Positions 1,401 through 1,545 of a stretch of DNA of 6,596 bases are shown one piece after another. How positions within the stretch are numbered: position 1 is the first letter of the stretch; every line of letters begins with the position of its first letter. The notes below the pieces were generated by a model. That model was not told the origin of the DNA and did no database searches. It saw nothing but the letters and a program-made list of their open reading frames with translations. The DNA is taken from positions 1 through 6,596 of IMG/VR virus record IMGVR_UViG_3300023215_002382; one strand, 5' to 3'. Position numbers and translations under genes: made by a program. The DNA comes from a virus.

Positions 1401-1427
1401 TGGGAGCCAGCCGGGCGCGGGGGTGCG

Positions 1428-1455
1428 CTTCGCATAATTGGGATTACGTGTAAAT
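1428..1455 (+). other. dif-like XerC/XerD recombination site (candidate attP)
   Basis: The sequence reads CTTCGCATAAT-TGGGAT-TACGTGTAAAT. Compare canonical dif, 11+6+11 (E. coli GGTGCGCATAA-TGTATA-TTATGTTAAAT; many beta/gamma-proteobacterial dif sites have TTCGCATAAT in the XerC arm, as I recall). The XerC arm matches at TTCGCATAAT. The XerD arm matches as TTAcGT[g]TAAAT, with one substitution and one extra base. The central region is unrelated. Confidence 0.5.
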
Positions 1456-1491
1456 AGACCGGCCCGCCCTGCCAATTTTCGGGCCGGTCTA
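1455..1491. repeat. Perfect 12-bp stem hairpin (candidate packaging signal, complementary-strand origin or terminator-like element)
   Basis: TAGACCGGCCCG (1455-1466) and CGGGCCGGTCTA (1480-1491) are exact reverse complements with a 13-nt loop, CCCTGCCAATTTT. The hairpin lies in the main intergenic region of the phage. Confidence 0.85.
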
Positions 1492-1493
1492 CT

Positions 1494-1507
1494 CGGCTGG
1501 CCAGCCG
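1494..1507. repeat. 14-nt perfect palindrome CGGCTGGCCAGCCG
   Basis: Read directly from the sequence. It sits 3 nt after the 12-bp hairpin and inside the larger 1427-1545 inverted repeat. Confidence 0.8.
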
Positions 1508-1517
1508 CCTACGGTAA

Positions 1518-1545
1518 CGTAATTCCCATCCATATTATGCGAAAC
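1518..1545 (-). other. Inverted partial dif-like site (XerC arm only) that pairs with 1427-1448
   Basis: The minus strand reads GTTTCGCATAAT-ATGGA-TGGG-A-ATTACG. Pairing with the plus-orientation site is 1427-1438 with 1534-1545 (11/12), 1439-1442 with 1525-1528, and 1443-1448 with 1518-1523. There is a 5-nt bulge at 1529-1533 and a 1-nt bulge at 1524. Confidence 0.45.

Follow-up and report, generated by a model that had tools for sequence, protein, structure and literature searches.

The intergenic region at 1427-1545 is probably the attachment site (attP) of a CTXphi-type IMEX (a mobile element that integrates by exploiting Xer), a new example of a mechanism that is already known and whose understanding it leaves unchanged. 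The window, i.e. the whole 6,596-nt stretch of DNA analysed, is a complete circular inovirus genome of 6,452 nt, with positions 1-144 repeated at 6453-6596. Its long ORFs are all assigned (Rep, ssDNA-binding protein, coat proteins, pVI, Zot and an XRE repressor) and, as the preliminary description had stated, no integrase is present; recombinase, transposase and DUF3653 domains were not found among the ORFs. The genes and terminator-like sites around the region are:

5728..6596, continuing over the circular junction into 403->1, minus strand: Rep, a G2P/RstA-type rolling-circle initiator of 375 aa (PF05155, PF05144)
460..891, plus strand: XRE-family repressor (HTH_3, E 3.5e-15), in an RstR-like position and divergent from Rep
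1157..1369, plus strand: small uncharacterised ORF, 70 aa long or 62 aa if it starts at the second ATG (1181), directly beside the dif-like site B
1376..1400, plus strand: intrinsic-terminator-like hairpin and T-run GCCCGCCGAAAGGCGGGTTTTTTT, read from the sequence and with its stem also in the terminator listing, at the end of the small plus-strand ORF
1613..1626, minus strand: terminator-like site just 3' of zot, from the terminator listing
1669..2742, minus strand: Zot/pI assembly ATPase (PF05707, E 2.5e-21), last gene of the morphogenesis module

The Rep protein shares less than 50% identity with the closest phage records, one of which is Pseudomonas phage WX_Y with the annotation 'RstA1', and a near-identity DNA search of the phage collection with the window gave no match. 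Exact-protein look-ups with Zot, the 70-aa ORF and the 143-aa repressor matched only when alternative start codons were used. For the small ORF, Pfam and PHROG gave no match and the predicted structure (pLDDT 57) was too poor for fold comparison, while an exact copy is present in sequence L058. The attP region lies between zot on one side and the regulatory genes on the other, and is flanked on both sides by the terminator-like sites listed above. Since zot has its own such site (1613..1626), the attP hairpin need not be its terminator, and this role was set aside.

The XerC arm of the Pseudomonas-type dif, TTCGCATAAT, occurs exactly twice in the window, in inverted orientation, at 1429-1438 (plus strand) and 1543-1534 (minus strand). 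The copies are 105 nt apart, with 95 nt between the arms. Dinucleotide-preserving shuffles contained a mean of 0.01 exact matches, and two matches were seen in 0 of 200, so that the pairing of a dif-like site with an inverted second XerC arm, reported at the outset, holds well above chance. The sequence at 1428-1455 is CTTCGCATAATTGGGATTACGTGTAAAT, and 1534-1545, when reverse-complemented, reads GTTTCGCATAAT. The two sites and the fold that they would form are made up as follows:

1512..1545, minus strand: site A, attP1-like, the predicted crossover site, with XerC arm GTTTCGCATAA (1545->1535), 12-nt spacer TATGGATGGGAA (1534->1523) and XerD-like arm TTACGTTACCG (1522->1512)
1427..1455, plus strand: site B, the attP2-like partner, with XerC arm GCTTCGCATAA (1427-1437), 6-nt spacer TTGGGA (1438-1443) and XerD-like arm TTACGTGTAAAT (1444-1455)
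1429..1543, minus strand: whole folded attP(+) candidate, with a 10-bp XerC-arm stem, 5-nt bulge ATGGA (1533->1529), 5 bp, a 1-nt bulge, 6 bp and two inner hairpins
1455..1493: inner hairpin 1 of the fold, with a G+C-rich stem of 12-13 bp, TAGACCGGCCCG/CGGGCCGGTCTA, and a loop of 13 nt
1494..1507: inner hairpin 2 of the fold, the 14-nt palindrome CGGCTGGCCAGCCG

Site A has the polarity 5'-XerC arm-spacer-XerD arm-3' on the strand that bears Rep, the coat genes and zot. In inoviruses this gene-sense strand is the one that is packaged, and site B is present on it as the complement, making the 3' half of the stem. Because site A shows this polarity on the gene-sense strand, XerC could cut it as a single strand, and exchange is predicted at the border of arm and spacer, 1535|1534. 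With spacers of 12 nt in site A and 6 nt in site B, neither duplex is expected to be a normal Xer substrate. Seven of the eight inner bases of the site A XerD-like arm agree with the consensus, and that of site B, TTACGTGTAAAT, differs from TTATGTTAAAT by one substitution and one inserted base, exactly as had been noted, and is the sole location in the genome within that distance. The window's XerD arm matches the consensus more poorly than those of its relatives and is the weakest of the family.

The XerC arm of the window, whose own host we infer, is identical to that of P. aeruginosa dif and to that of the empty dif in the host of the closest relative, so that the proposed comparison with host dif would favour the initial reading. 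That dif is TTCGCATAA-TATATA-TTATGTTAAAT, and the first three bases of the site A spacer, TAT, are the same as its own; in CTX these three bases are the reported determinant of specificity (PMC4246890). Over the whole spacer, identity between site A and dif is confined to 1-3 bases.

The stem pairs over 21 bp in all: 10 bp (1429-1438 with 1534-1543), then, past the 5-nt bulge at 1529-1533, 5 and 6 bp. The pairing, the bulge, the 12-bp hairpin and the 14-nt palindrome thus agree with the preliminary description, to which a 1-nt bulge has to be added. Folding with DNA parameters, which had been suggested as a check on both strands, gave -43.0 kcal/mol (z -6.1) for the plus strand and -43.6 kcal/mol (z -5.8) for the minus strand, and 0 of 200 shuffles folded as well. 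As the strands fold equally well, we choose between them by the polarity of the genes and by the way in which the prophages of relatives are oriented. An Rfam search gave no family at the gathering threshold. The XerD arm had been described as only partly double-stranded; this is correct for the minimum-energy fold, where the duplex is TTACGT alone (6 bp), but 8 bp can be reached in a fold other than that of minimum energy, in which site B bulges out its extra G/C (the 'inserted' base).

The same architecture is found in 20 distinct relatives (Rep 67-98% identical), all of which retain the XerC stem, a 5'-side bulge of 2-6 nt and a second stem of 11-14 bp, their XerD arms being fully paired over 11-14 bp versus 6-8 bp in the window. 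Their hairpins differ in sequence, and the second stem compensates for the differences. In the stem alignment (A2), which has paired N columns and a register fitted to maximise pairing, 87.6% of cells were paired, compared with 28-40% when the partners were slid; changes on both sides were seen in 10 of the 14 pairs of helix 2, and the covariation score was matched by none of 500 shuffles. MAFFT and RNAalifold recovered the same stems without fitting, and 8 of the 22 pairs showed compensatory change. The sequence of the bulge drifts freely, and the paired bases do not. Some of the relatives (L013, L023, L034) have XerD arms that are nearly those of CTX, TTATGTTGAG and TATGTTACG. The inner hairpins are also maintained: in L037 and L040 a compensatory change (GGGCCG/CGGCCC) preserves the stem of the first, and in L005 and L037 the stem CGGCT/AGCCG of the second is retained, the loop being variable in both cases. 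The TTCGCATAAT arm of site A is invariant in all 20 relatives, and that of site B varies at positions 1, 2 and 10.

Integration at dif is seen in relatives found as prophages. The closest relative has an ssDNA-binding protein identical to that of the window, a protein for which the assembly collection has index entries in 529 blocks, and a Rep that is 97% identical. Prophages with this exact ssDNA-binding protein match the window at 87-89% identity over the stretch that runs from the repressor gene via Rep and the structural genes to zot, and gene order around zot in the prophages of relatives equals that of the window. For the closest relative, marine Pseudomonas-like genomes provide not only attP, attL and attR but also the empty dif and a tandem dimer. 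The empty dif was found in Pseudomonas sp. MAGs (empty sites L041-L045). A free form (L003) and an integrated one (L002) are 100% identical until TTCGCATAATAT, beyond which the latter continues as host DNA. In L048-L051 attL, an intact partner site and attR are present with a spacing of exactly 7,501 nt, which is one genome length, and the tandem dimer is seen in L050 and L052. The prophage layout at dif is found in L002, L048-L052, L027 and L034, and attR in L006, L014, L019, L024, L030 and L031; the chromosomes of Pseudomonas sp. P818 and S. stutzeri KOS6 carry prophages too.

In all nine integrated relatives the crossover is at the gene-sense arm, the counterpart of 1535-1545 (minus strand) in the window, and the dif-like attR is on the Rep-sense strand; none has a junction at the equivalent of site B (1428-1455) or the opposite prophage orientation. 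Instead, the site B equivalent is intact just inside attL. The roles assigned at first, with 1427-1455 as the main site and 1534-1545 as the second arm, are therefore reversed, since the relatives cross over at the full attP1-like site A. These junctions favour the CTX-style reading over a second one, in which site B would be a VGJphi-type double-stranded attP, with XerC exchange with dif and reversible integration. That proposal, initially rated as equally good, now appears highly improbable. The layout of site B is the more canonical of the two, as its spacer is 6 nt long and no other XerD-like arm is present in the genome by the measure given above, and its 12-nt arm, including the inserted base, is conserved in all six complete sequences of the window's attP subtype. 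Against this, the site B XerC arm varies within the family and is degenerate (ATCGCATAAA) in the close subtype members L005 and L037, whereas the arm of site A is invariant; the site B spacer begins with TTG (AGG in L005) rather than the TAT or TGT of dif; and VGJ-type elements carry a XafV gene beside attP (bioRxiv 10.64898/2026.06.12.731946), of which no homologue is detectable in the window, where the neighbouring ORF is uncharacterised.

The window's own attP subtype, TGGGAATTACG, was seen seven times (window, L058, L005/L036, L037, L038, L039 and L040). Pattern scans of viral and metagenome contigs found it in free arrangements alone, with no integrated copy, and a scan of viral contigs for the attL expected in an L042-type host gave nothing. 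The suggestion that prophage junctions should be hybrids of dif and attP is borne out in relatives, the closest of which provides attB, attP, attL and attR complete, but not by any integrated example of the subtype itself. In the six contigs that span it the attP lies intact between zot and the regulatory genes; L038 ends short of it. L005, which has a second zot, was considered as a two-phage array, a reading rejected as it is one genome with structural genes unrelated to those of the window.

The seven free arrangements (with attP intact in all six contigs spanning it), the circular assembly of the window and its weak XerD arm are what would be expected if the hairpin were a minus-strand origin, packaging signal or transcription barrier and not an active attachment site, with the arms a decaying relic of dif and the phage purely episomal; the inner hairpins, preserved by compensatory change, may have a function of their own. 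A free arrangement is no proof of episomal life, because the internal junction of tandem prophages also shows an intact attP. We regard the relic explanation as very unlikely, given that both XerC arms of the window are perfect 10-mers, that the site A arm is invariant in the subtype, that bulge and paired bases behave as in the functional relatives, and that terminator-like sites of their own already border the hairpin region.

For an active CTX-type attP the following course is proposed. In the (+) single strand, packaged or produced by rolling-circle replication (the window minus strand), sites A and B would anneal as the stem of a forked hairpin, in which the XerC arm is duplex, the central region has a 5-nt bulge and the XerD arm is short. 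This mimic of dif would be bound by host XerC and XerD, and XerC would exchange one strand at 1535|1534 with the top strand of a chromosomal dif such as that of the closest relative's host; the intermediate would be converted to a prophage by replication. The products would be attL, consisting of the host XerC arm and the phage spacer, with the attP2-like site left intact behind them, and attR, with the phage XerC arm joined to the host spacer and XerD arm. In the window's subtype attR would join 1535-1545 to TATATATTATGTTAAAT; zot would adjoin it, and the XRE repressor would sit near attL. Because attR is a regenerated dif, more copies can integrate there, giving tandem arrays. Binding by the Xer proteins, catalysis by XerC only, use of a single strand and resolution by replication are presumed by analogy to CTXphi. 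The initial reading as a XerCD-dependent attP, now probably in the form of a CTXphi-style folded strand, is supported by the CTXphi-like anatomy, the covarying fold of about 20 relatives, their junctions at dif, and the arm of the host dif.

The sequences of attL and attR would be equal for single- and double-stranded use of site A, so the single-strand step is one that we infer. A 'left-armed' attP, in which XerCD recombine the double-stranded replicative form at 1523-1545 with dif while the inverted partner and hairpins do other work (e.g. minus-strand origin, packaging signal), would yield the same attL and attR as in the relatives. It has precedents, as one-armed dif-like attP sites of 17 bp are reported in Vibrio IMEXs (PMC12715192) and Xanthomonas phages have a 15-nt core of XerC arm plus spacer; in integrative Xanthomonas phages, furthermore, G+C-rich hairpins serve as packaging signals. 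However, the reported one-armed sites share the whole spacer with dif, whereas the 11-12 bp spacer of a duplex site A has 1-3 bases in common with it, and CTX attP1, also with a 12-bp spacer, is reported to be unfit as a duplex substrate (PMC4246890). A Xer activation factor domain (DUF3653) is absent from the window, no XafT-like domain or DUF3653 being hit at E <= 1 in any regulatory-region ORF; a TLC/XafT reading was rejected for the same absence. Left unexplained by the left-armed model are the complement of the XerC arm, retained 85-125 nt away in every relative, and the covarying spacer-proximal stem. This alternative is therefore considered unlikely.

With the folded CTX-type attP preferred, the window and its relatives carry the CTX design to a large and environmentally abundant group of inoviruses of Pseudomonas-like hosts. 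With about 20 diverged versions of the hairpin in hand, natural compensatory changes reveal which pairs are under selection, and the variants form a ready test set for the demands of XerC and XerD on the fold. A rule for the borders of such prophages also emerges: a perfect XerC arm past zot, with an inverted partner about 90-125 nt beyond. A more speculative reading, which we consider rather improbable, is that the folded attP of CTX type is not peculiar to Vibrio and enterobacteria but an old cassette that moves easily, exchanged by inoviruses that are unrelated to one another and live in marine and soil Pseudomonas-like bacteria. Its XerD site would exist only as a heteroduplex, the two arms departing from the consensus at differing positions, with the G.T plus A.G pattern that is also seen in CTX. 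If this were true, the window's subtype, with a 6-8-bp XerD arm and a bulged base, would be a variant that recombines almost or entirely without XerD bound, or helped by another factor, e.g. the small uncharacterised ORF beside attP.

To our knowledge, CTXphi alone has been shown by experiment to integrate as a folded single strand by means of host Xer recombinases. In that phage attP1 and attP2 are folded in the (+) single strand and XerC alone exchanges strands (Val et al. 2005, as reviewed in PMC4246890 and PMC3442271), the spacers measuring 12 bp and 5-7 bp and the distance between the sites 90 bp (PMC4246890). A CTXphi control (GQ485649.1), folded with the same tool, gave -43.9 kcal/mol (z -6.7), a 5-nt bulge on the 5' side and two inner hairpins, with spacers of 12 nt in the gene-sense site (attP1) and 7 nt in the other. 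Like CTXphi, the window has no integrase, an inverted dif-like pair between the last gene of its strand and a divergent repressor, a 12-nt spacer at the gene-sense site and 6-7 nt at the other, a forked 'double hairpin' of near-equal folding energy with a 5-nt bulge on the 5' side adjoining the XerC arm, an RstA-type Rep and an RstR-like repressor; its relatives share the regeneration of dif at attR, the fixed prophage orientation and tandem arrays. Unlike CTXphi, the window presumably belongs to Pseudomonas-like rather than Vibrio hosts and has the XerC arm TTCGCATAA of Pseudomonas-type dif instead of GTGCGTATTA, a basal stem of 10 versus 15 bp, a hairpin of 115 nt versus about 150, a XerD arm that pairs over 6-8 bp with an extra base on the attP2-like strand, and no toxin genes; its family is known from sequence analysis.

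VGJphi-type IMEXs are also integrase-less inoviruses with XerC-initiated exchange at dif (PMC4246890). They use a single, fully paired, double-stranded attP of 29 bp, reversibly and with a XafV gene adjoining, whereas the window has two inverted sites and no Xaf-like domain was found; junctions in its relatives are at the long-spacer site, none of the nine being at the short-spacer one. TLCphi and the Xanthomonas phages Cf, phiLf and XacF1 likewise lack an integrase and integrate at dif. The Xanthomonas att core, stated in the preliminary description as TATACATTATGCGAA and given in the same wording in bioRxiv 10.1101/2023.12.30.573655, holds the XerC arm of the window, TTCGCATAA. The attP of these phages is one-armed or without a XerD site, shares the whole dif spacer and is accompanied by a DUF3653 (XafT-like) protein; the window has neither that spacer nor that protein. 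Ypfphi of Yersinia pestis and CUS-1phi of E. coli O18:K1:H7 are enterobacterial and longer (8.7 kb), and are likened to the window by description, the proposals of a folded attP being sequence-based for both. They possess an inverted pair of XerC/XerD binding sites for which a CTX-like fold was proposed, and dif is regenerated at the 3' end of their prophages, which form tandem repeats (PMC4266046).

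An exact 144-nt repeat links window positions 1-144 to 6453-6596, giving a complete circular genome of 6,452 nt with 53% G+C. Its genes and sites are as follows.

403 to 1 joined to 6452 to 5728, minus strand: Rep, a G2P/RstA-type rolling-circle initiator whose gene spans the circular junction
4967-5254, minus strand: ssDNA-binding protein
4518-4721, minus strand: major-coat candidate
3071-4408, minus strand: pIII-like protein with a Gly/Asp/Ser linker
2742-3071, minus strand: pVI-like protein
1669-2742, minus strand: Zot/pI
1545 to 1512, gene-sense (minus) strand: site A (attP1-like), GTTTCGCATAA / TATGGATGGGAA / TTACGTTACCG, 12-nt spacer
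1427-1455, other (plus) strand: site B (attP2-like), GCTTCGCATAA / TTGGGA / TTACGTGTAAAT, 6-nt spacer
1376-1400 and 1626-1613: terminator-like sites flanking the attP region
1157-1369, plus strand: 70-aa ORF
460-891, plus strand: XRE repressor

A domain search of these genes found no integrase, transposase or DUF3653 domain. There is no near DNA match to the window in the phage collection; the best matches to Rep fall below 50% identity, among them the Rep of a Pseudomonas phage, annotated as RstA1. The 70-aa ORF is acidic (62 aa if the second ATG is used), lies 58 nt from site B, and occupies the slot used for Xer activation factors by TLC-type and VGJ-type phages. Pfam and PHROG searches gave no match for it, its single-sequence structure model (pLDDT 57) is too poor for comparison, and the related contig L005 encodes a different protein at this position. 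The longest inverted repeat of the genome (1050-1084 / 1108-1142; 35-nt arms, 77% complementary, 23 nt apart) is intergenic, between the repressor and this small ORF, and may be an origin or packaging signal. Within the pIII-like gene, a long run of imperfect 9-15-nt repeats (3490-3720, minus strand) encodes the GDGG and GSGD units of the linker, and produces spurious long ORFs in antisense frames.

The preliminary description proposed a XerCD-dependent attP at 1427-1545, used either as CTXphi-style folded ssDNA or as a VGJ-type duplex at 1428-1455. All sequences it named are present where it placed them. The XerC arm TTCGCATAAT occurs exactly twice in the window, in inverted orientation (0.01 expected), and the XerD-arm-like word TTACGTGTAAAT is unique in the genome. 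The stem consists of three paired segments (10, 5 and 6 bp) separated by a 5-nt bulge and then a 1-nt bulge, and encloses a 12-13-bp hairpin and a 14-nt palindrome. Both strands fold into a forked hairpin (about -43 kcal/mol, z about -6).

A Rep-based scan gave 25 viral contigs (Rep 67-98% identical) and 10 genome loci, mostly from Pseudomonas and Stutzerimonas, and the same design is common to 20 distinct attP regions. In these, TTCGCATAAT is invariant on the Rep-sense strand and is followed immediately by a 2-6-nt bulge, then by a second stem of 11-14 bp with a TTAYGT core, while the inverted XerC arm lies 84-126 nt downstream. In an alignment of the stems with fitted register, 87.6% of cells are paired, against 28-40% with slid partners; of the 14 pairs in the second helix, 10 have changes in both partners, and the observed covariation score was reached by none of 500 shuffles. 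An unfitted alignment of the natural sequences (MAFFT and RNAalifold) also recovered both stems, and 8 of their 22 pairs show compensatory change. No Xer consensus constrains the spacer-proximal pairs, and still they change together (one position has GC, AU and CG), so selection acts on the pairing itself. Among relatives the XerC arm of site A does not vary and that of site B varies at positions 1, 2 and 10, a pattern that fits site A as the cut strand, with site B only supplying its complement.

The closest relatives, of the type represented by phage L003, have a Rep 97% identical to that of the window and an identical ssDNA-binding protein, and they are found integrated at dif, the host chromosome-dimer-resolution site. 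The L003 attP reads ...GAGCGT TTCGCATAA TATCCG TGCAGG..., and the empty attB in Pseudomonas sp. MAGs reads ...ATCTGGG TTCGCATAA TAT(A/G)TA TTATGTTAAAT AAGGTG... (P. aeruginosa dif is GATTCGCATAATGTATATTATGTTAAAT; PMC2731167). At the attR of L002, 100% identity with L003 ends at TTCGCATAATAT, followed by ATATTATGTTAAAT AAGGTG.... Complete prophages occur in marine contigs of 86-116 kb and in MAGs. Their attL consists of host sequence, TTCGCATAA and TATCCG..., with site B intact 95 nt beyond it; attL and attR are exactly 7,501 nt apart, one genome length. A tandem dimer regenerates the full attP at its internal junction (L050 6899-20288; L052, Tara scaffold_154). Chromosomal prophages are also present in Pseudomonas sp. 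P818 (L027: attL 7980, attR 15847) and S. stutzeri KOS6. The first three spacer bases of site A in the window, TAT, are those of the L003-type host's dif; those of site B are TTG.

Further tandem prophage arrays occur at L023 (1646 and 8770) and L029 (4927 and 12171). The bulges of the two L023 copies differ (TGTCCT vs TGTGAT), which points to the integration of two different variants in succession and not to a repeat introduced by assembly. Strains differ in the host DNA that surrounds dif (L048 6127-6898 vs L042; L002 6296-6663). A 238-aa ORF without a domain match lies between a GGDEF/EAL gene and dif in lysogens L048-L051 and is absent from empty-site genomes L041-L045; its segment showed no Xer arm at the far edge and therefore does not look like another integrative mobile element exploiting Xer. 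On its opposite side dif is flanked by a DUF3223 gene, and about 370 nt of L002 in that place are missing from L041. The index of the assembly collection lists the window's exact ssDNA-binding protein in 529 blocks, many from marine (Tara) samples and with contigs of up to 200 kb; the phage group is therefore common and often integrated.

In all nine loci that carry a full dif-like site, it lies on the Rep-sense strand, downstream of zot. Exchange between the dif top strand and the gene-sense strand of site A would place it this way round; use of site B, or of the other strand, would give the opposite orientation. Every junction observed in the relatives contradicts the VGJ-type duplex attP at 1428-1455. 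The leading alternative, in which site A is used as a duplex, would yield identical junctions; it leaves the conserved, covarying partner site unexplained, and has to accommodate a 12-bp spacer and the absence of an activator. CTX-type integration is the best-supported account of the attP region, drawing on sequence, fold and conservation and, among relatives, on where the junctions lie, how the prophages are oriented, the empty site and the tandem arrays. The (+) strand would fold into a dif mimic and serve, single-stranded, as the substrate bound by XerC and XerD; XerC alone would then exchange one strand at 1535|1534, and replication would complete the prophage.

The attP/lysogeny cassette is mosaic. 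The window and the L003 type are 87-89% identical across the stretch that begins with the repressor gene and continues over Rep and the structural genes as far as zot, yet the window differs from L002/L003 in its attP module, which recurs at 79-87% identity in L005 and L037 beside structural genes unrelated to those of the window (window 945-1666 vs L003 107-1858, L005 2137-2258 and L037 2905-3139). The window's exact 109-aa repressor is also found beside L003-type downstream genes (L054-L057). There are seven sightings of the window's attP subtype: the window, L058 (100% identical to window 5-2732), L005/L036, L037, L038, L039 and L040. The attP is intact, in the interval between zot and the regulatory genes, in all six spanning sequences; the L038 contig breaks off within the hairpin. 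The bulge sequence drifts (ATGGA, GACGA, GACGT), while the paired bases and both inner hairpins (1455-1507) are kept, once by compensatory change. This is a G/C swap in hairpin 1 of L037 and L040 (GGCCCG/CGGGCC to GGGCCG/CGGCCC); the loop varies freely. The inner hairpins may also act independently, for instance as a packaging signal or as an origin for the complementary strand. None of the seven sightings is an integrated copy, and we therefore infer that the window phage integrates. A purely structural role of the region in this phage, as origin, packaging signal or terminator, is conceivable; it leaves two perfect XerC arms unexplained, and terminator-like sites already stand on both flanks.

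The CTXphi spacers measure 12 bp in attP1 and 5-7 bp in attP2; these sites are 90 bp apart, and neither is usable as a duplex substrate (PMC4246890). As a control, the ctxB-rstR junction of a tandem CTX prophage (GQ485649.1) was folded with the same tool as the window. Its gene-sense site is GTGCGTATTA / TGTGGCGCGTCA / TTATGTTGAGG (12-nt spacer) and its inverted site ATGCGTATTA / CTCGCCA / TTATGTTACGG (7-nt spacer). In the fold of its + strand (-43.9 kcal/mol, z -6.7) the XerC arms form the basal stem, a second stem follows after a 5-nt bulge on the 5' side, and two hairpins lie inside; the window has the same layout. The CTX XerD arms TTATGTTGAGG and TTATGTTACGG (L047 546 and 695) are nearly identical to their counterparts TTATGTTGAGC and CTATGTTACGC at sites A and B of several relatives from the Pseudomonas group (L013 4781, L023 1646, L034 6363), and in both cases the heteroduplex has a G.T plus A.G mismatch at positions 8-9 of the arm. 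Since the base that agrees with the consensus falls at a different position on either strand, the DNA may contain a consensus-like XerD site only when folded. Beyond Vibrio, CTX-type sites have already been proposed for Ypfphi and CUS-1phi (PMC4266046), and a full-text literature search found no description of this attP design in Pseudomonas-group inoviruses. The mechanism is not new, and the importance of the finding is moderate, lying in the breadth of the family and the natural covariation data. Apart from a short XerD arm and prophage evidence that comes from relatives, the window agrees with CTXphi attP(+) in every feature testable at the sequence level, and its element probably works in the same way.
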